The notes beneath the pieces were generated by a model. It made no database searches and was not told where the DNA came from. It saw only the letters and a program-made list of their open reading frames with translations. A DNA stretch of 63,195 bases, filler included, from Reticulomyxa filosa (taxonomy: Eukaryota > Protista > Foraminifera): the NCBI GenBank assembly GCA_000512085.1. It is 20 parts of 20 records of this genome, joined end to end, with 100 filler letters (N's around TTAATTAATTAA, not from the genome) between each part and the next. Parts side by side here need not be neighbours in the genome. Positions count along the whole stretch, not along the records: positions 52,079 to 56,699 come from ASPP01023435.1; 19 more parts are not named here. One strand, 5' to 3'. The position numbers were made by a program, and so were the translations under genes. Below are positions 8,144 through 61,619 of the stretch, piece after piece (the stretch's first letter is position 1; each line of letters opens with the position of its first letter).

Positions 8144-8460
8144 AAACTGTATTATCATCTGATCCAGAACAAATGAATTGATAATCATCAAATATTGAAT
8201 AATCAATACTCTGCACAATGCTTGTATGTCCAGTGAATGTATTGATTAATTTGGATGATGAACGAAATGTGTCAAACATGAAGAAAGTAGATACCTATGT
8301 TAAATAAACATTTGAATATTTTGATTAATGTTTAAAAAAGAAAGAAACAAATGAACTAACATAATTGACAACAGTTTGTCAAAATCTTTGATCCATCCTA
8401 ATTTAATGTTTAATGTTCGAATCCAATGATGAATAATTATTTGAATCTCTTCTTCTTTTG
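8144..8460 (-). pseudogene. 5' part of an expanded-family WD40 gene; apparent 1-nt deletion in the module exon
   Basis: KEEEIQIIIHHWIRTLNIKLGWIKDFDK exon, then MFDTFRSSSKLINTFTGH...FICSGSDDNTV, paralogous to 54908..56297. AAACTGTTGTC lacks one base compared with paralogues. Confidence 0.65.
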
Positions 8461-9235
8461 ACTGTTTCAATCATAAAGCAAAATGGGAAAAACAATATAA
8501 CAAAAACATAACTAAAGAACTTAAACGAAACTTTCATTACTAAGTTAAAGTATCTTCTTTTTTTTACTTGAGATGATCTTTGATGATGCTTTTTTTAAGG
8601 GCACGAAGGGTCAATAAAAATTGAAATGAATTTGTTTTATTTACTAAATATAAACTTTGTAATGAGAACAACAAGAAATTTTTTTAAATTTACTCAAAAT
8701 TATATGAAATGGGCAATTTGAATGCACAAGCACGTACAATTGAATATGAATTATTGTTTTTTTGAAAACTCATTTCAAACAATTCCCGTTAATAGTTTAC
8801 GAAGTGTTTTTAGACTGGATTATTGGATTTAGAGTTATTCTTTGTTCAATGTTTTTTCATTGGTTCTTATTTTATTTTTTTTGACAAAGAGCTCTCTTTA
8901 AAATTCTTTTTTTGCAAATATGCAATTAATTCATAAATACGTTCAAGAAAAAGATATTAATGATTTTATCGCAATTTGGTGAATAATAAATAAAATAAAA
9001 TAGATAATTTTCCGTCATTCATCCAATCTCTTAAAGGTACAAAATGTTAATATTTTAATGTACTTTATCCTGTCCCAATAATTTCCAAAAACACAAAAAT
9101 GAATTGTACAAAGACCAATTTGAATAATTTTCATAACTTTAAATATTTTTAATTTTTCAAAAAAAAACAACTATGTTTTGATTTAAAAACTAAAAATAAT
9201 AGTGTAATAATATCAAAAGTATCAAGTGTTTTCAT

Positions 9236-12843: not shown

Positions 12844-13287
12844 TTATTTATGAAGCCTATTAAATGGTTTTGGATTAATTTTTTTAACATCATTTGATGA
12901 TGGTTCAATACCATAAATTGCAATTCTTCCTTTTCCTCCACTTCCTCCACTTCCTCCAATACATGTGATAGTTCCAAAAGTTTGTTTCAATTCATTTGAA
13001 TAAGATTGAGATTGACATTGCAATTCAATCAATATTGACCCTCCACTTCCACCACCACTCCATGCATCTACTCCCTTTCCTCCATTGGATTGAATCGATC
13101 CATGATTGATCAATTGTTGTTCAATTATCAGTTCAATTATTCCACCACCACTTCCTCCAATGTAATTAAATGCGCTTCCACCTCCACCACTTCCAAAATG
13201 AATTTGTTTCAACAAAGTTTCTTCTCCATACATTTCTCCACCTTCTCCATCATTTCCTTCTCCTTTCGTTCCATATCCACCACTACC
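12844..13287 (-). CDS. C-terminal Gly-rich repeat domain (FGSGGGG/GGGIIEL/GGSGGSILI/GRIAIYG) of an expanded lineage family; 5'-truncated
   Basis: Open frame from the contig end to the stop at 12844; periodic GGxGG-I-L motifs. Confidence 0.7.
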   Translation of the reverse strand, partial: GSGGYGTKGEGNDGEGGEMYGEETLLKQIHFGSGGGGSAFNYIGGSGGGIIELIIEQQLINHGSIQSNGGKGVDAWSGGGSGGSILIELQCQSQSYSNELKQTFGTITCIGGSGGSGGKGRIAIYGIEPSSNDVKKINPKPFNRLHK

Positions 13288-14619: not shown

Positions 14620-15985
14620 TGTCGTCACTGGCTACTGTGCCATCAATGACCCTGTGTCATCACTGGCTCATTACTGATTCCTGTGTCATCCGTGTTTTTT
14701 TTGTCATTTCTATTTTATATGTCATCAATAGCTCATATGTCACCACTAATTCCTGTGTCATTCCTGGTTATTGCGTCATTCCTGGCTCATGTGACATCTC
14801 TTAATTTTGTGTCATTCATGGCATTGGTATCGATCTTGTCATTGGTGTCATTCCTGTATTAATGTTATTCCTATCATTTGTGTCATCCCTGTTATTGGTG
14901 TTATTTTTGGCATTTGTGTCATTTTTGCAATTGGTGTCATTCCTGTTATTGGTATCGTTTCTGTCATTGGTGTCATCCCTGTTGTTAGTCATTCATATCA
15001 TTGGTGTCATTCCTGGCATTTTTATCATTTCTATCATTTGTGTCATTCCTGACATTGATGTTATTTCAAGCATTTGTGTCATTCCTGTTATTGAAGTCAT
15101 TCCTGTCATTTGTGTCATCCCTGTTATTGGTGTCATTACTTACATTTGTGTCATTCCTGTCATTCTTGTCATTGGCATTTGTTCTGGTATTGGTGTCATC
15201 CCTGTTATTGCTGTAATCGCTGTCATTGGTGTCATTCCTGTAATTGGTGTCATTCCTGTAATTGGTGTCATTCCTGTCATTTGTGTAATTCATGTCATTA
15301 ATCATTTGTGTCATTCCCGCAATTTGCGTCATTCCTGTTATTGGTGTTATTTATATCATTGGTGTCATTCCTGCAATTGGTGTTATTACTGTCATTGGTG
15401 TCATTACTGTCATTGTTACCATTGGCATTGTTTCTGGCATTAGTGTCATCACTGATTGGTGTTATTACTGTCATTTGTGTTATTTCTGCCATTGGTGGCA
15501 TTCCTATCATTGGAGTCATTCCTGTTATTGGTTCATTTTTTGTCGTCTGGGTCATCCTGTCATTGGTGCTATTTTTGGCATTTGGGTCATCCCTGTTTTT
15601 GGTAATATTCCTGTAATTTGTGTCATTCCTGTTGTTGATGCCATTTTATAATTGGTGTCATTTTTATTATTGGTGTTATTCCTGCAATTGGTGTCATCCA
15701 TGTCATTTGTGTCATTCCTGTCATTGGTATCGTTCCTGGCATTTGTGTCATCCCTGTTATTGGTGTTATTTTTGGCATTTGTGTCATTCCTGTTATTGGT
15801 GTCATTACTGGTATTTTTATCATTTCGGTCATTTGTGTCATTACTGGTATTGGTATCATTTTTGTCATTTGTGTCATTCCTGTTATTGGAGTCATTCCTG
15901 TATTGGTGTTATTACTGCCATTCTTGTCATTAGTATTGTTTTTGTCATTTGTGTCATTTGTGTCATTTGTGTCATCCCTGTTTTT
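14620..15985. repeat. ~1.4-kb degenerate minisatellite with 9-nt subunits (TGTCATTCC / TGTTATTGG / TGTCATTTG) and 18-nt higher-order period
   Basis: Visible periodicity; produces overlapping repetitive ORFs in five frames (VIPVIG, CHSCYW, SFLLLV, NRNDTN, TGMTPI). Confidence 0.95.
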
Positions 15986-16111
15986 TTGTCGTTCCGTTAG
16001 CAATGTTATGTTGTTGTTTTTTTATATTTATGTATACATATATATTTATACTCAAAAAAACAATATTATTAAACAACGACGAGAAATATAAGTGAAAACT
16101 TATTTCTCCGG

Positions 16112-22374: not shown

Positions 22375-22882
22375 ATGGTCTATACTACAAATTGTCTCAT
22401 GCCAAGAGTTGTGTTATGTGAAACAAATATGATTCACAGAACAAATTCTACATTATTTTAAACATTTCAAAAAATATTGGACGTCTTTGTTTGCAATAAT
22501 GAATAGAAAATACAGTGAATCTTTTAGTTGTCTTGATTGCAAAAAAAACAACAATCAATTTAATTGTAAAAATGAATAATATTGGTGGATTGGTGGAAAT
22601 GGACATACAATTTGTTTTGGACCATTTGATAAAACCATTCAAATATGGGATATTGAAACAACAAAACAATTCAATGTATTTAAAGAACATACGGAATGTA
22701 AAATATGGATCAAATTATTAAATACAATATTCCGGACCAAATGATAATAGTGTTCGTTTGTGGGATATTCGATCAAATAAGAATGAGTTTATGTAATGAG
22801 AGTAAATGAAGGTAATAATGAACAAGAATCAAATTGTGTTAGTTTATGCTATGGTTCAAAGGTTAGTTCATATTCGGGGATA
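22375..22882 (+). pseudogene. Degenerate copy of the expanded WD40 family
   Basis: Fragments NGHTICFGPFDKTIQIWDIETTKQF, VKYGSN, DNSVRLWDIRSNK and LCYGS..IRG* in several frames. Confidence 0.75.
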
Positions 22883-32271: not shown

Positions 32272-34527
32272 ATGTTGACAACAACACCTGAAGAGAGTCG
32301 TTTATCGCTTTGGTGTAATAACAACAAGTTTCCTTATTTCAATGCTTTAAAATTTGAAGCAGGAATTGAAACAGTAGAAGATTTGAAAAAGATATCAAGT
32401 GAAGAATTGGAAGACTTAACAGAATTGTTGAAACTAAATGGTGAAAAAAAGGAAGAGTTTGTGAAAGCGGTCAAGGCATTGCCAACTTCTTCTCCAATCC
32501 AAGTTTTTTTCTTTTGTAGAGACATATTCTTTTTAAGAGTTTTGTATGGAGTCATTTTTTTGCAAAAAAAAGAGCTGGTGTGACTCCATAAATTTGGGAC
32601 AATTTGGCAACAAATTGATTAATGTTGGAATAACTAACCCGATACAATTAGCAAAAATGAATGAAAGAATTAAATGATATTATTGCAACAATTGGATTAA
32701 AGTTAGGCTTCAAACAGATATTCTTGAAAAAGGTAGCCGAGCTAAAAACAAAAGAAAATGAGGAAATCAAAGGAAAAGAAAGTATAGAGGGATTGACTAA
32801 TTCTCAATCACTCAAAGCTAATCAAGAAGTTATCAGACATTACAATTATTGTATTATTTTTTTATTTTAATTTTACTTAAGTGTATAAACAAAAAAAATT
32901 GAAATAATAGCAAGTCAAAACTTCTAGTAAAAAGAAAGATGATCAAAAAGGTATAATACCTGTATCTTTCAAATCGAAAGAGCCTGCAAGCAATAATGGA
33001 AGAAATATTCGCAGGATTATGGTTATTGGAGAAACTGGTAGTGGTAAAACAACAATGTTGAATTCAATGATGAATTATCTGTTTGATGTCCAATTTGAAG
33101 ATAAATTTCGATATAAATTGATATTTGATGAAAAAAACGCAAAGAAATCAGATCAAAGTCAGAGCCAAACAGCATACGTAACTCCATATTTTATAGAGTT
33201 GCCGAAAGATAAGTTTGATTATGATCTAAATGTAATTGACACTTGAGGATTTGGTACTCATGATCCTACTGTAGACAAGAAAATTACAGGAGATATCAAA
33301 GAATACCTTGAAAGTATTGAATCAATACACATTGTATGTTTTGTGATTCGAGCTTCAAATGGCAGACTCGCCGTTAGTCAGAAGTACGTATTTGATTGCA
33401 TTTTGAAATTGTTTGCACAAAATATTGCAGAGAATATTTTTATTTTATTTACATTTGCTGATGGAAATAAACCGGTAGCTTTGTCTGCGGTTATTGATTA
33501 TAACGTGAAATTTGCCAAATATTTTAAACTGAATAACAGTGCTTTTTACAATGGATTTGAAACTGACTCTAAAGATAATACCTTAGAAGATATCGATCAA
33601 GAATTTACATCAATGTTTTGGAAATTAGGAATGAAAAGCTTTGAACAGCTGTTTATAGAAGTAAGCAGAATATCTCCTAAATCATTAACATTGACAAAAG
33701 AAGTATTAAAGGAAAGACAAGCATTGGAAGTGTATGTTATTCGCATGAAAGACAGAGTAACAAAGGGAACGAGCCAACTAACAGAACTTCGCCAATTAAT
33801 ACAAGCTTATGCAGACAATGAAGATATTATTAACTCCAATAAAAATTATCAAATTTCTGTGCAAAGACTTGCCTTTGAGAGAGTCTCTCTGCCTTCTGGT
33901 GTTTATTCTAACATATGTCAAAACTGCAATCGTACGTGCCATGAAAATTGTAGTACTCCAAATAACTCAGACAAAACTGGATGCTTTGCAATGTCTAATG
34001 GCTATTGCACTGTGTGTCCTGGAAAATGCCATTGGTCACATCACTCCAATCTACCTTTTGTCTACAGACGTTATGTTACAACTGAAGTAGTTACTCATAA
34101 TGAATTGAAAAAAAATTATGTGACAGCAACAAATAATAAGAGAAAGTTAGACCAGATGATCGATGCAATGACAAAAGAATTTAGTAATATTCAACAAGAT
34201 GTGTATGAACAAATTAACAACATTAAGAAATCATTGGACAGATTAAATCAGATCGCATTGCGGCCAAACGCTGCTATGCTAGAAGATTATTTAGATATAG
34301 TCATTGAAAATGAACAACATGAAAACAAAACAGGTTCGCAAGAAAGAGTGAAACAATTCCAACAAATAAAAGAAGAACAAAAATATTTAGCACGAGTATT
34401 AAAGGGAGAATATAAACCATGGGAAAAAGAACTTGAAGACATTCGTAACCGCAAAGTTGCAGACATCGGATTAAAATTACAATAAAGTAATGAAGGTCAA
34501 AAGACTAAGTCCTGGGAGTTTTGGTGA
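32272..34527 (+). pseudogene. SAM-SAM + AIG1/septin-like P-loop GTPase + Cys-rich + coiled-coil gene with three lesions
   Basis: G1 GETGSGKT; G3 IDT*GFG (TGA 33244-33246, in frame with 33343..34485); LFTFAD; CQNCNRTCH..CTVCPGKCHWSHH; frameshift near 32663 in SAM2; TAA at 34483 before in-frame ...KSWEFW*. Confidence 0.75.
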
Positions 34528-44688: not shown

Positions 44689-46050
44689 TCAAATATTAAT
44701 CGAACCCTTGTTTGAACCATAACACAGATTAATACCACAATCACTATAACTTTTTGCTTTCCTTTTTAATTGTAAAAATTTAAGACACATTATTCCACAA
44801 TCTCTTTCGCCATTTCCATTGATCACATACAATTCCCTCTTATTTGATCGAATATCCCAAAATCGAATTGTATTATCCCAGGATCCAGAACATATTACAT
44901 TTGAAATACCACTAATTTCAACATTATTTACTACAAATGGTGAATATTCAACAGCATATACATAATTGGTATGCCTTTTAAACACTTGAATTTGTTGACC
45001 AGATCGAATATCCCACAAACGAACACTTTTATCCCTTGATCCAGATAATATTGTATTTGCACTACCATTAATTCCTAATTCATTTGACCCATATTTTACA
45101 CTCCTTACATAAGCTTCATGCCCTTTAAATGCGATAAATTGTTTGGTTTTTTCGATATCCCATATACGAATAGTTTTATCATCTGATCCAGAACAAATGG
45201 TGTATCCACTTCCACCAATCAAACCAATGGTTTCATTGTTATTACTTTGCAGTGGTGAAATATCAACACACCAAATAATATCTTCATGTCCATTGAAAAC
45301 ACATAATGGTCTAGATGTTTTGACATCCCATAAGCGAATTGTTTTATCATATGATCCAGAACATAAATATCTACCACCTTTGAACGATGAAAATTCGATG
45401 CCACAAACACTACCGGTATGTCCATTGAATAATTGCAATTGTTGATTATTTTTGAAATCCCAAAAACGAATAGTTTTATCAAATGACGAAGAGCAAATGA
45501 CATTGCAATGATAATTATAATAATGATATAGCGAAAATTTTACGCAATACACAGTACAAGAATGTCCATTGAATAATTGAATTTGTTTATTGGCTTCAAC
45601 ATCCCATACACGAACTGTTTTATCATTTGATCCAGAACAAAGTAGTTGGTCGCTATCGAATGTGAAATAATCAATACTATAAACCCAACTATTATGTCCA
45701 GTGAAAGTTTTGAGTAGTTTAGGTGAGGAAAGAAATGTGTCAAGCATGAAGATAGTAGCTGCCTGTGTTGTATAGTAATTATGAAAACAACAAATACATA
45801 TTTAATCGAGTAAAGCAGAAAACAAATAAACTTAACATATTTAATAACAAATTTGTCAAAGTCATGAATCCATCCTAATTTAATGTCTAATGTTCGAATC
45901 CAATGTTGCATAATTTTTTGGATATCTTCTTCTGACTGACTCAATCACATACAATAAAAAACTAAAGTGACTAGTTCTTCCGAAAGAGCGAAAAAAGCTT
46001 ACCAGTGATAGCTGCGTTGACCCTTTTTTTTCATTTCTAAGAGTAATCAT
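44689..46050 (-). CDS. Expanded-family WD40 protein, 3 exons (46050-46003, 45935-45837, ~45762-44689)
   Basis: Repeated CSGSxDKTIRxWD blades; exon structure matches 54908..56297; ends INI* where paralogues end IWG*. Confidence 0.9.
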
Positions 46051-46777: not shown

Positions 46778-47346
46778 TCATCCCCAAACATGAATTAGGC
46801 CTATGTTTGAACCGTAACATAAATTAACACAGCAATTTTCATTTGATATTTGTTCATTGCTCTTTGTCTTCTTTTTCAATGATAAAAATTTAAGACACTT
46901 TATTCCTCCATGTTCTTCATCATTTCCGTTGAGCACATACAATTGATTCTTATTTGATCGAATATCCCAAAATCGAATTGTATTATCATCTGATCCAGAA
47001 CATATTACATTTGAATTACTACCAATTTCAACATTATTTACTACAAATGGTGAATACTCAGCACAATTTACACTATCTGTATGTTCATTGAACACTTGGA
47101 TTTGTTGACCAGATCGAATATCCCATAAACGAACACTTTTATCATTTGATCCAGATAATATTGTATTTGCACCGCCATTAATTCCTAGTTCATTTGACCC
47201 ATATTTTACACACTTAATATGACATTTATGTCCTTTGAAAGCAATGCATTGTTTGGCTGTTTCAATATCCCATATCCGAATAGTCGTATCATTGGACCCA
47301 GAACAAATGGTATATCCATTTCCACCAATCACACCAATATTATTCA

Positions 47347-47382
<36 letters not shown>

Positions 47383-48700
47383 CATTTTTGTTATTGCTTT
47401 GCAATGGTGAAATATCAACACACCAAACAGTTCTTTTATGTCCCTTAAAAATATGTAATGCTTTTGATGTTTCAACATCCCATAAACGAATAGTGTAATC
47501 ATATGACCCAGAACACAAATATCGACCACCATTAAATGGTGAAAATTCAATGCCACAAACACCATATTGATGTCCACGGAATAATTGCAATTGTTGATTA
47601 TTTTTGAAATCCCAAAAACGGATGTCTTCATCTAATGATGAAGAACAAATGACATTATAATGATGACTTTGATAATGATATGGCGAAAATTTTACACAAT
47701 ACACTTCAGATAAATGTCCATCGAATAATCGAATTTGTTTGTTTTTATCAATATCCCATACACGGACTGTTTTATCATTTGATCCAGAGCAAATGAATTG
47801 GTGACCATTGAATCTTGAATAATCAATATTATAAATGCAGCTATTGTGTTTAGTGAGTGTATTAAGTGATTTGGATGATGAACGAAACAAATCAAAGCTG
47901 AATGTATACGATAGATTGGATTTGGATTGTAATATTTGATAATTGGAGTCATGTTCTTTTTTATCTTCGTTATGATTGTTTATTTCATGAGCTTGATTTC
48001 CTTTGAATTTAATTTCTTTTTTTAATTGCTCAATTTCAATGAAAAGATTATCCTGAGGAACGTCGTTTGTTTATCTGTTTGTATTATAAAAAATAAAAAA
48101 TAAGAAAAGAAGTATACCAGTTGTTGTTTTAAGATTAGATTGTTATTATCCATTTTTGAAATTTCTTCATTTTGATTTTTTTCATTTAGTTCTTTTTCTG
48201 ATTTTAAATGCTTAATTTCCTATTTTGTCATTTGATTGTTGTTATCACGTTATTTTGAATTACTTTCAAGAAATAGTGCATATGCTGACAAATGTTTTTT
48301 TTTTTTTTTTTTTTTTTACATTAATTTTCTCGATTTGTTTGCATTGTTCATCATTGTTGCTTTTTACAAGTCTTTCCAATCTGTTCGTGCAAGTATACAC
48401 ATATTTTGATATTATTTAAGTTTGATTCATTTTTTTTTTGACTTTAACTGTTGGATGCTGTTTTTCAATTCAGTTATTTGCGTATCTTTTTTCACAGATT
48501 CATGTTGTAAATTATCAATTTGTTTCTATTTGTTCAAATAGTAAGGAATTAATGCACAGAAAATATTTTAAATATAGAAACATATACATTAAGTTGTTGA
48601 ATTCGTTTGCTTTTTTCGTTATCATTTTCTTTTAGCTTTTCAATTTCTGTGTTATTTTTCAAATGCATTTCTTTTAATTGTTCCTTTTTTTTTTTTTATA
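46778..48700 (-). CDS. Expanded-family WD40 protein with coiled-coil N-terminal exons; 5'-truncated
   Basis: 370-aa WD40 ORF extends upstream in frame to ~48052 (DNLFIEIEQLKKEIK...); further K/E/Q-rich exon-like segments run to the contig end. Confidence 0.85.
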
Positions 48701-48806
48701 TATATANNNNNNNNNNNNNNNNNNNNNNNNNNNNNNNNNNNNNNNNNNNNTTAATTAATTAANNNNNNNNNNNNNNNNNNNNNNNNNNNNNNNNNNNNNN
48801 NNNNNN

Positions 48807-50940: not shown

Positions 50941-51918
<978 letters not shown>

Positions 51919-52109
51919 GTCTACCTCGTCATGAGTTGGGCAGAGCAGCCGACAAAACCCGCCCCCGTCCCGAAGGCCNNNNNNNNNNNNNNNNNNNNNN
52001 NNNNNNNNNNNNNNNNNNNNNNTTAATTAATTAANNNNNNNNNNNNNNNNNNNNNNNNNNNNNNNNNNNNNNNNNNNNATAATAATAATAATAATAATAA
52101 TAATATAAT

Positions 52110-54907: not shown

Positions 54908-56297
54908 ATGACAACTCCTATTAACGTAAAAAAAAATTCAGTGCAGCCAACGCTGGTAAATTTTCCTTTTGACCTTTCAAAAGCTGTTATCTTTAGATTT
55001 TTTATTGTACTTTTTGTGTGATTTGTGGTGGACCAGTCAGAAGAAGAGATACAAATAATTGTTCAATATTGGATTCGAATAATAAAGATTAAATTGGGAT
55101 GGATCCGTGATTTTGACAAATTTGTTGTCAACTATGTTACGTTTTTTGTTTTTTTCAAAAGTAAATATTTATTTGTTGTTATTGTTTATAAACATTATCT
55201 AATAGGCAACTACAGTTTTCATGATCGATTCGTTTTGCGTATCATCCAAATTGCTTAAAATATTTAATGGACACAATACTCGTGTGTATAGCATTGACAA
55301 TTTCACATTCGATGATTGTCAGTTCATTTGTTCTGGATCAGGTGATAGAACAGTTCGTGTATGGGATGTAAAGACCACCAAACAAATTCAATCATTCAAT
55401 GAGCATTTAAGTTATGTATTTTGTGTGAAATTTTCACAATATCATTATCGTAGCAATAAGCGTACTGTTATTTGTTCTTCATCAAGTGACAAAACTATTC
55501 GTTTTTGGGATATCAAATATAATCGATCATTCCAAATATTCACTGGACATACTTCATCTGTTTATGGCATGAAATTTTCACCATTTAATGGTGGTAGATA
55601 TTTGTGTTCTGGATCATTTGACAAAACTATTCGTTTATGGGATGTTGAAACATCTAAATCATTACATATTTTCTATGGGCATGAAGGTTGTGTTTGGTGT
55701 GTAGATTTTTCACCATTGCAAGGCAATAATAAGAATGATAAAAGTAATAGTATTGGTGTGATTGGTGGTAATGGATATACTATTTGTTCCGGAGCATGGG
55801 ATAATACTATTCGTATGTGGGATATTGAAACAACAAAACAGTTGATTGTATTCAAAGGACATGAACAGTTTTTGAATAGTGTAAAATATGGATCAAATAA
55901 ATCAGGAATTAGTGGCAGTACAAATACAATATTATCCGGATCAGATGATAATAGTGTTCGTTTGTGGGATATTCGATCTGGTCAACAAATCCAGGTATTC
56001 AGACATATAAATGCTGTGTATGCTGCTGAATATTCGCCATTTATAAATAGTAATGAATTTGGCGATGATTCAAATGTAATATGCTCTGGATCATACGATA
56101 ATACAATTCGTTTCTGGGATATTCGATCAAATAAGGAATTGCACACGATAAACGGAGATGATCAAGAAGATGACGGAATATGCTGTCTTGAATTTCTACA
56201 ATTAAAAAAAGAAAAAAAGAAAAGTAATAACAACAGTGGTTATGGTATTACTCTGTGCTATGGTTCACGAAAAGGTCGTATTTGCATTTGGGGATAG
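54908..56297 (+). CDS. Expanded-family WD40 protein, 3 exons (54908-54955, 55037-55135, 55206-56297)
   Basis: Phase-0 GT-AG introns; WD40 blades; ends ICIWG*. Confidence 0.92.
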
Positions 56298-57906: not shown

Positions 57907-59044
57907 ATGAGTGAACCCTTTGAAACTTTGAAAAAATGTCCCTTTTCACTAAAGGAGTCTCAATGTGTGTTTTACGAACACGAACTCCTCATTTGTGGGG
58001 CTTTACACAGTAAAGATTGTTATTCTTATCATACGCTTAAAAAAGAATACAGATTTATCTGTAAATATCCAAAAAATATTGAATTAATCGGACACTGTGT
58101 AGTGAAAATAAAAAATAACAAAGATAGAAATGAAATAACTTTACTGTCTTTTGGTGGACCACGTAATCGTGTATTAATAATGAAATATGTAAGTATTTGG
58201 AGTAATATATCAAATAAATCGTATAAATTGAACAATTATAATCAATGGATTCAGCTTAAAGATAATTACAATAATCCAATTCATTTTGAATCTACTACGT
58301 ATTATTCTGGATCGCGTGCAGTGAGTGAAACTAATAATGATTTATTATTTATCGCTTCTGCTTCTTGTACTATTAGCGTATTTGATTTAAATACACTTCA
58401 ATTTATTAAAAATGATAATTTACCACTTACTCGTCGAGAGATGGGATATGGTTGTTTTGTATTAAATTCAGGAAATAAATAAACACAAACAAAAATATAT
58501 GAAATGTTATTGTTTTATCGATCAACAGGATTATCAATTGAATATGATGAAAATAATAATACTTTTCAATTTCATAAATTACCTATTTGTAGAGGTATTT
58601 CACAATTCTTTGGGTATGGATACGTACTTATTAATGATGCTATTTTATTTTTTGGTGGATGTGGTGATGGTATTACAAACGCAGTACTTGAATATTTAAT
58701 TCCAGAAAAAAAATGGGTAGCATTTAAAAATACATTACCTTGTGAATTGTGTCATTGTACTGCAATATTAAATGAAAAAGATAAGTATATATACATCATT
58801 GGAGGATATAATGGAGAAGAGACAACATCAGTTCACATGAGAACAAAAGTGCGTGAATGGGATCCTTTATACTTGGTAATTATTTATTTATTTATTTATT
58901 TATAAATTTAATTTAATTTTGATTAATAATGAATAGACAATGAATGAAATAAGATTTATTATTCAATATTTGGTTCGAACTTTGAAGATAAAATTCGGAT
59001 GGATCAATGATTTTGACATAATTATTACAAGGTACAGTAGATGA
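57907..59044 (+). pseudogene. Kelch-like propeller gene with one in-frame TAA (58480-58482) and a terminal module exon 58937-59044
   Basis: ORFs 57907..58482 and 58504.. are in the same frame; GG/Y/W kelch motifs; phase-0 intron 58876-58936. Confidence 0.75.
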
Positions 59045-60507: not shown

Positions 60508-61558
60508 GGCGAAGAAGCATGCCACGGCCGACGATCCGTGGGCGATGGAGTGGATGAAGACCAACACGGCGGCCAGCGGCGCCTACGTCATCGAGAGCCA
60601 CAAGCCGGGCGAGAGCACCGTGCTGCGCCGTAACGAAAAGTGGGTCGGCGGCGCCGGTGGTGCGCTCCCCTCCTTCAAGCGCATCATCATCCAGACCGTG
60701 CCGGAACCGGCGACCCGCGCCAACCTGATCGAGCGCGGCGATGCCGATCTCGCGATCGATCTGGCGGCCAGCGACCTGCCGACCATCGAGAAGTCGGCCA
60801 AGTCCAAGGTCGTCTCGATCCCGCAGACCAACGGCTTCACGCATATCTCGATGAACACGCAGATGGCGCCGTTCGACAATCTCAAGGTGCGCCAGGCCGT
60901 CGCCATGGCGCTGCCCTACGAAGACATGTTCAAGGCGGCGATCTTCGGCCGCGGTACCAAACTCTACAACGGCACCTGGGCCACCGTGCCGCCGGATGCG
61001 AGCTTCCCGCAGGCGATTCCCAACAAGACCGATCTGGCGAAGGCCAAGGCCCTGCTGGCCGAGGCGGGGCATCCCAACGGCTTCTCCACCACCTTCGCCT
61101 TCACGGCCGGCCAGACGGCGACGGCGGAGCCGATGGCGGCGCTGGTCAAGGAGTCCCTGGGCAAGATCGGCATCCAGGTTGAGATCCAGAAGAAGCCCGA
61201 CGCCGAGTTCAACACGCTCGAGTCGGAGAAGAAGATGCCGCTCTTCACCGACGGCGCGACCGCCTGGCTGCCCTACACCTATTACTTCTTCTACCTCTAC
61301 TTCACGCGCGACCAGCGTTGGAATTTCGCGAGCTTCAAGAGCAAGAAGATGGAAGAGCTCACGCTCGAGGCCCGCTACCAGACCGACAAGGCAAAGTACG
61401 AGGAAGGCTGCAAGCAGATGATCGAACTGTTCAACGCGGAGACGCCGTTGATCATGCTGTGGCAGCCCAACCACGACGCCGTGATGGCGAAGTCGGTCGA
61501 CGGATACACCTACCAGTTCTACCGCCAGGCCGACTTCCGCGACCTCAAGCGGGTCTAG
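60508..61558 (+). CDS. Bacterial ABC transporter substrate-binding protein, family 5 (Dpp/Opp/Nik-like), 5'-truncated
   Basis: High GC; SGAYVI..H.PGE..VL.RN, PFDNLKVRQAV, DLAKAKALLAEAG.PNGF. Confidence 0.92.
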
Positions 61559-61562
61559 CACC

Positions 61563-61619
61563 TTGCTGGCCGGCATCCTGCGCCGGGTCGGTCGACGCCT
61601 TCTGGCATCGATCCCGGCC
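61563..61619 (+). CDS. Start of the cognate ABC permease (DppB/OppB-like)
   Basis: TTG start 4 nt after the upstream stop; MLAGILRRVGRRLLASIP. Confidence 0.55.

Follow-up and report, generated by a model that had tools for sequence, protein, structure and literature searches.

We analyzed a 63,195-nucleotide stretch of the genome of the foraminiferan Reticulomyxa filosa (assembly GCA_000512085.1), here called the window, in which N-rich linkers connect 20 small contigs. Our subject is a module of 33 amino acids that occurs four times in the window and accompanies two kinds of propeller domain, standing ahead of the propeller in WD40 genes and behind it in a kelch gene (Table 1). An earlier note on this DNA had listed four copies of the motif, and a profile built with three of them (the 8-kb copy was left out) scores all four at 60.1, 56.9, 53.9, and 50.1 bits, with the next match in the window at -3.4 bits and a top score of 0.1 bits across 10 shuffled windows.

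Genes that carry the module in the window

In both intact module-WD40 genes (2 out of 2), the module is a single exon in phase 0 at either end, as the earlier note had described. Splice junctions were deduced from GT/AG sites together with alignments of the family, and not from RNA. The three exons listed for each gene join into open chains without an internal stop, of 412 amino acids for the 55-kb gene and 406 for the 45-kb gene, whose stop lies two codons earlier than in its 55-kb paralog. For the 55-kb gene, NCBI model P0011 runs on into intron 2. The note was also right that the module forms the last exon of the kelch gene and is entered there in phase 0; the gene itself is broken by an in-frame TAA. 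The placement of the 8-kb copy had to be corrected: 8362-8460 is out of frame, and the exon runs from 8461 to 8361, with an additional codon as well as a deletion of 1 nt. The WD40 exon comes next and is cut at 8144 by the contig end.

Table 1. Features of the window that bear on the module.
Feature	Position	Strand	Gene	Basis
Module exon, 33 amino acids, 99 nt, AG/GT-bounded, phase 0/0	55037..55135	+	Intact module-WD40 gene (55-kb gene)	
First exon, 16 codons	54908..54955	+	55-kb gene	
Linker helix and WD40 type-1 propeller exon	55206..56297	+	55-kb gene	Paralog structure model
Module exon, 99 nt, AG/GT-bounded, phase 0/0	45837..45935	-	Second module-WD40 gene (45-kb gene)	
First exon, 16 codons	46003..46050	-	45-kb gene	
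Linker helix and WD40 type-1 propeller exon	44689..45762	-	45-kb gene	
Frameshifted module exon, 101 nt	8361..8461	-	Pseudogene fragment at contig end	
Kelch propeller exon, interrupted by an in-frame TAA (58480-58482)	57907..58875	+	Stop-broken kelch gene	
Module as last exon, phase-0 entry	58937..59044	+	Stop-broken kelch gene	
WD40 type-1 propeller with coiled-coil-like N-terminus, module-less control	46778..48706	-	47-kb gene	

Two further propeller remains lie in the window: a decayed type-1 WD40 remnant at 22567-22880 (+), and a kelch gene that begins at about 24148 (+) and runs off the end of its contig.

A family of propeller proteins with variable faces

All census counts come from protein searches, with the module called at 25 bits or more, and are lower bounds. 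The module was found in 203 of the 262 proteins fetched, in each case next to a kelch propeller, a WD40 propeller, or both, except where the protein is a fragment, which agrees with the earlier claim that it is common to both families; the count of partner domains that the earlier note had proposed returned kelch, WD40, or both, and the fetched carriers showed no further kind of domain adjoining the module. Module-WD40 (type 1) accounts for 88 proteins, plus 3 truncated models and 1 fused model, and another 88 were scored as kelch-module. One of the latter, P0221, continues into a WD40 propeller and belongs with 10 more proteins to a third architecture, kelch-module-WD40 (type 2), known from protein models (P0162, P0215, P0221, P0227, P0230, P0237, P0238, P0242, P0249, P0251, and P0255). 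A single protein joins the module directly to a type-2 WD40 propeller, and 13 are module fragments. Identity between the two WD40 types is about 41%.

Among 120 kelch paralogs picked without regard to the presence of the module, the C-terminus consists of the module in 62, of an apparent intron read-through at the same junction in 34, and of an acidic or coiled tail in 10, and is truncated or unclear in 14. Given that 34 of 120 NCBI kelch models read into the intron ahead of the module exon, annotation likely hides many module copies. The acidic or coiled tails belong to P0146, P0155, P0160, P0163, P0170, P0172, P0174, P0176, P0185, and P0189; P0155 and P0189 have a C-terminal motif in common that has no Pfam match. 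Because module-less kelch paralogs and the module-less 47-kb WD40 gene exist, the module is optional for both folds.

The 76 protein matches to a profile of the four copies are all Reticulomyxa filosa models, as are all 120 among the matches listed (of 168) for a broader profile. Three matches were obtained in viral contigs, of which the two inspected are 306-amino-acid phage capsid-like frames that match by chance, and none of 161 pattern matches in metagenome contigs was confirmed as the module. PDB sequences contain no relative (best E 0.15, chance level); the ESM Atlas gave no usable feature match, and its structure matches, one of them a foraminiferan WD40 cluster, all have template-modeling scores below 0.5. 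The module is not described in the titles and abstract beginnings of the literature searched. It is real, and undescribed within the libraries searched.

AlphaFold2 models predict that the module is a helix-loop-helix separate from both propeller folds. In kelch protein P0161, the predicted helices span residues 318-332 and 340-352 outside the propeller, with a predicted local distance difference test score (pLDDT) of about 75 falling to 45; in WD40 protein P0025 they span residues 7-20 and 31-51, again outside the propeller, the second running into it (pLDDT about 55-70). Both predicted helices are amphipathic, about half of the module's residues are hydrophobic, and kelch-module proteins mostly end 0-6 residues past the module. 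Residues W12, R14, I18, G21, W22, I23, F26, and Y33 are each present in 181-195 of 195 copies, W22 having served as the selection filter for this set. Among the findings that the earlier note had named as counting against it are that the module is an integral part of the propeller fold or matches a described domain. In the models the module is helical and lies outside the propellers, it is missing from relatives in both families, and it has neither a Pfam match nor a PDB sequence match.

The propellers, which the earlier note had called fast-evolving and often broken, fit that description in their faces and in the stop and frameshift of the window copies. We took as WD40 top-face hotspots the positions R1, R1-2, and D-1, following PMC3419727. 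Mean pairwise identity among 41 full-length proteins is 0.19 in the 20 hotspot columns (which include two mis-picked by the rule and left in) vs 0.66 in the 312 others, a difference reached in 0 of 10000 permutations, and is 0.70 in the module. Likewise, the loops after the GG turn of the kelch propeller show an identity of 0.33 vs 0.67 elsewhere (74 proteins). In three non-independent comparisons of window genes, the proportion of nonsynonymous differences (pN) at hotspots is 0.58, 0.55, and 0.39 vs a gene-wide synonymous proportion of 0.42, 0.36, and 0.33 (omega 1.8, 2.1, and 1.3; Fisher p-value=0.041, 0.008, and 0.32), and pN outside the hotspots is 0.14-0.18. These values suggest positive selection on WD40 top-face codons. 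A constant module with hypervariable faces is best read as a recognition repertoire, and this combination points to recognition of the host-pathogen or self/non-self kind; defense as the purpose of the repertoire would be a further step.

The module as a candidate cullin-ligase box

We propose, with a probability of roughly 0.6, that the module is a cullin-ligase receptor box of divergent sequence, carried by a diversified propeller repertoire. We arrive at a docking box because expansions of cullin receptors follow the pattern seen here, in which two unrelated propellers have variable faces and share a constant helical tag, and the link to cullins draws on this analogy and on loose overlays of low-confidence models. 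The module would dock many Reticulomyxa kelch and WD40 propellers on the adaptor of a cullin-RING ubiquitin ligase (CRL), and the variable propeller faces would select the targets. Helix 1 would sit in a hydrophobic groove of the adaptor, helix 2 would face the cullin or the adaptor, and bound targets would become ubiquitylated. As to the adaptor, one of the Elongin C type is possible, DDB1 is doubtful, and Skp1 or a Skp1 paralog is improbable.

The closest kelch systems are the VHL-box receptors KLHDC2 and KLHDC10 (CRL2-Elongin BC), in which a kelch propeller is likewise followed by a short C-terminal helical box. Our kelch model overlays KLHDC2-EloBC (8sh2) with residues 17-348 on 26-399, spanning the module (Z 20.2, root-mean-square deviation (rmsd) 5.5, 275 aligned), and KLHDC10-EloBC (9d8p) with residues 9-332 on 41-419 (Z 22.0, rmsd 5.0, 271 aligned); overlays on these two receptors have an rmsd of 4.8-5.7 on low-confidence residues. 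The predicted module loosely overlays the BC-box and Cul2-box region, its hydrophobic spacing fits, and helix 1 of the model falls on the KLHDC10 BC box region (residues 402-414; PMC10591846). However, the module lacks the (S/T/P)L start, the key C/A/S residue, and the cullin-box proline, has two predicted helices instead of three, occurs also in N-terminal and central positions, and shows no detected sequence similarity to these receptors.

For the WD40 carriers, the comparison is with the DDB1-CUL4-associated factors (DCAFs) of CRL4-DDB1, such as CSA, DDB2, and DCAF12, which insert a helix-loop-helix into DDB1 (PMC9929631). The type-1 WD40 model has such a helix-loop-helix directly ahead of its propeller, a feature not applicable to kelch-module proteins, and it overlays CSA in DDB1-CSA (6fcv) with residues 4-401 on 1-365 (Z 35.6, rmsd 3.5, 329 aligned). 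The whole module is covered in 3 among the 50 matches listed for this model: CSA and two of WDR33 bound to CPSF160. The alignment with beta-TrCP starts only at residue 23 (rmsd 6.3), and a fold search of the redundant PDB returned the propeller only, with no module-covering F-box, TBL1, or DDB2 match listed, which excludes nothing. The strict DDB1-binding WD40 (DWD/WDxR) motif, as defined in PMC5749748, is present in 37 of 43 type-1 propellers and in just 2 of 8 type-2 propellers; the module-less gene has it too, and about half of plant WD40s contain it. About half of the module carriers have no downstream WD40 propeller.

We scored box patterns on 130 modules with 8 upstream residues, using published BC, Cul2, and Cul5 patterns as well as F-box (LPxE) and LisH patterns. 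The BC box reads (S,T,P)Lxxx(C,S,A)xxx-hydrophobic (PMC4878042) and the Cul2 box lies 8-23 residues past it (PMC3355856). A relaxed hydrophobic register, chosen after the data were seen, is kept by 98 of 130 modules for the BC box and by 125 of 130 for the Cul box spacing without proline, and the BC-to-Cul distance that depends on this register is 9 residues (I13 to W22). Pfam has no family for the module in 20 members, including SOCS_box (PF07525), F-box, and LisH, although HMMER filters lose weak matches. The SOCS box of CRL5 receptors such as WSB1 and ASB presumably resembles the module in length, hydrophobic register, a conserved arginine in helix 1, and a terminal tyrosine; unlike it, the module has LGWI in place of LPxP. 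An F-box starts with LPxE and folds into three helices over 40-50 amino acids, and was rejected for the module on the LPxE count given below, the two predicted helices, and the Pfam result. Judged by its sequence, the module should not be counted among the VHL boxes, SOCS boxes, F-boxes, or LisH motifs. Separately, a giant-virus bin (L004, L129, L130; G001) contains an Elongin C-like gene, a SOCS-box protein above the Pfam cut-off, and a weaker one, and viral-collection records hold Skp1-like frames (L124-L128), four with apparent introns.

Several results weigh against docking on a cullin adaptor. The strict BC box, the Cul2 box (hydrophobic-P-xx-hydrophobic-xxx-hydrophobic), the Cul5 box LPxP, and the F-box LPxE each occur in 0 of 130 modules, and in the set of 195 there is no C/A/S at position 9 and no proline at positions 18-26. 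Scores against two viral SOCS boxes are no better than those of shuffles (185 of 300 and 212 of 300 shuffles reach them), and hhalign gives a probability of 0.15. The overlays are loose, involve model parts with a pLDDT of about 45-75, and suggest two distinct adaptors; alignments with muskelin (8ttq, residues 11-353, rmsd 4.0) and with a sialidase that is unrelated (rmsd 6.3) likewise reach over the module, and the alignment with KLHDC3-EloBC ends at residue 310, at the propeller. Conservation of the module does not exceed that of the propeller core (0.63 vs 0.67 in kelch proteins), the ratio of nonsynonymous to synonymous substitution rates between the two window genes being 0.38 vs 0.33, which indicates similar purifying selection. 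Finally, the three codon comparisons have genes in common and cover 16-19 codons, and the strongest includes the module-less gene.

It is unlikely, in our estimate, that the module instead acts as a LisH-like dimerization element, two copies forming a four-helix bundle that would pair kelch and WD40 propellers as homo- or heterodimers, possibly in a GID/CTLH-like assembly, and so serve avidity or combinatorial recognition. Its 33-residue length class, two helices, and roughly half hydrophobic residues would suit such a role, as would the spacing in helix 1, which we take to resemble that of LisH. Muskelin aligns across the module, and LIS1 is among the tied top matches of the WD40 model, over the propeller only. 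Against this, the LisH pattern was found in 0 of 130 modules, glycine at position 17 in 1 of 195, and a Pfam LisH match in none of 20 members.

Docking on a non-ubiquitin scaffold, for example a signaling or cell-death effector that reads ligand binding by the hypervariable sensors, is in our view quite unlikely. Hypervariable faces indicate recognition and not ubiquitylation, the canonical cullin-box residues are missing, and WDR33-CPSF160 uses the same helical placement outside ligases; yet a kelch propeller with a C-terminal two-helix box and a helix-loop-helix with a WD40 propeller both mirror cullin receptor layouts (PMC9929631). A structural cap or passenger exon, packed on the propeller bottom and amplified with the genes without a common partner, would explain why module constraint is no stronger than that of the propeller and why many carriers are pseudogenes, but is very improbable given that the module is kept on three propellers, in three positions, with its core residues in 181-195 of 195 copies, and that the same propellers occur without it.

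Lineage-specific expansions elsewhere offer parallels for a cullin-ligase box. Nematode genes of the F-box and MATH-BTB kinds form birth-death families with a variable substrate face and a constrained cullin-binding part (PMC4334554); Reticulomyxa differs in its box, in its lineage, in placing one box on two propeller types, and in having two-propeller members. Trypanosome kelch proteins without known boxes, the TbCul-E adaptors, are lineage-specific and co-purify with a cullin and a Skp1 paralog, although just four proteins are concerned there and the partner is known by pull-down (PMC12816148).

A receptor with two propellers and a central box is a layout that we know of in no cullin receptor. 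We consider it conceivable, but rather unlikely, that the module represents a position-independent new box class without the canonical cysteine and proline, carried by hundreds of positively selected sensors, including two-headed kelch-box-WD40 proteins, and that these form a ubiquitin-based intracellular immune repertoire in a giant syncytial protist. A cullin-box role would give a testable function to two of the large gene families that are unexplained in the Reticulomyxa genome, in a group, the Rhizaria, for which almost nothing is known of recognition systems. If the box does bind a cullin adaptor, the range of known box sequences widens to include some that current profiles miss.

Spread of the exon and other features of the window

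The earlier note had regarded the module as a shuffled exon. Its symmetric phase and its presence in two families stand, but free shuffling does not, in view of the propeller-only partners seen and of near-perfect sorting by family. Identity among 184 full modules is 0.72 within WD40 type 1 and 0.67 within kelch vs 0.53 between them, and on the module tree (33 columns, weak support) the type-1 label needs 2 changes, compared with 61 in shuffles. With a leave-one-out profile, 69 modules of the WD40 set separate from 59 kelch modules without overlap. Within the kelch tree, the kelch-module-WD40 members are scattered, with 9 changes for 10 rows in a poorly supported, unrooted tree, which is shuffle level and fits recombination among paralogs; this tree, in which 4 of 85 branches are starred, has a star-like shape and is unable to root the history.

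The kelch-module-WD40 family and the single module-WD40 type-2 protein are natural bridges between the kelch and WD40 carriers, and therefore few transfers suffice. Bridging would involve a single exon in phase 0 and the loss or exchange of the kelch exon upstream or the WD40 exon downstream. In one possible order, whose direction is unrooted, the module would first have been located after the kelch domain, a downstream WD40 exon would then have been gained to give kelch-module-WD40, and the module would finally have been captured ahead of the second WD40 family.

The remaining features of the window lie apart from the propeller genes. Two contigs (50941-51978 and 60508-61619) have a GC content of 0.64-0.65 and bacterial-looking frames (by eye, phosphoenolpyruvate carboxykinase-like and ABC solute-binding-like), and are likely contaminants. 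A septin-like GTPase at 32911-34485 (+; Pfam Septin, E 2.4e-6) is interrupted by a TGA in frame at about 33244, is followed by a region that is cysteine-rich and coiled-coil-like, and is likely a pseudogene. A fragment with a TRAF-type zinc finger and a coiled coil lies at a contig end (13388-13917, -), and a glycine-rich frame without a Pfam match at 12847-13287 (-). Degenerate tandem repeats of short units occupy 14737-16000, with long open frames on both strands.
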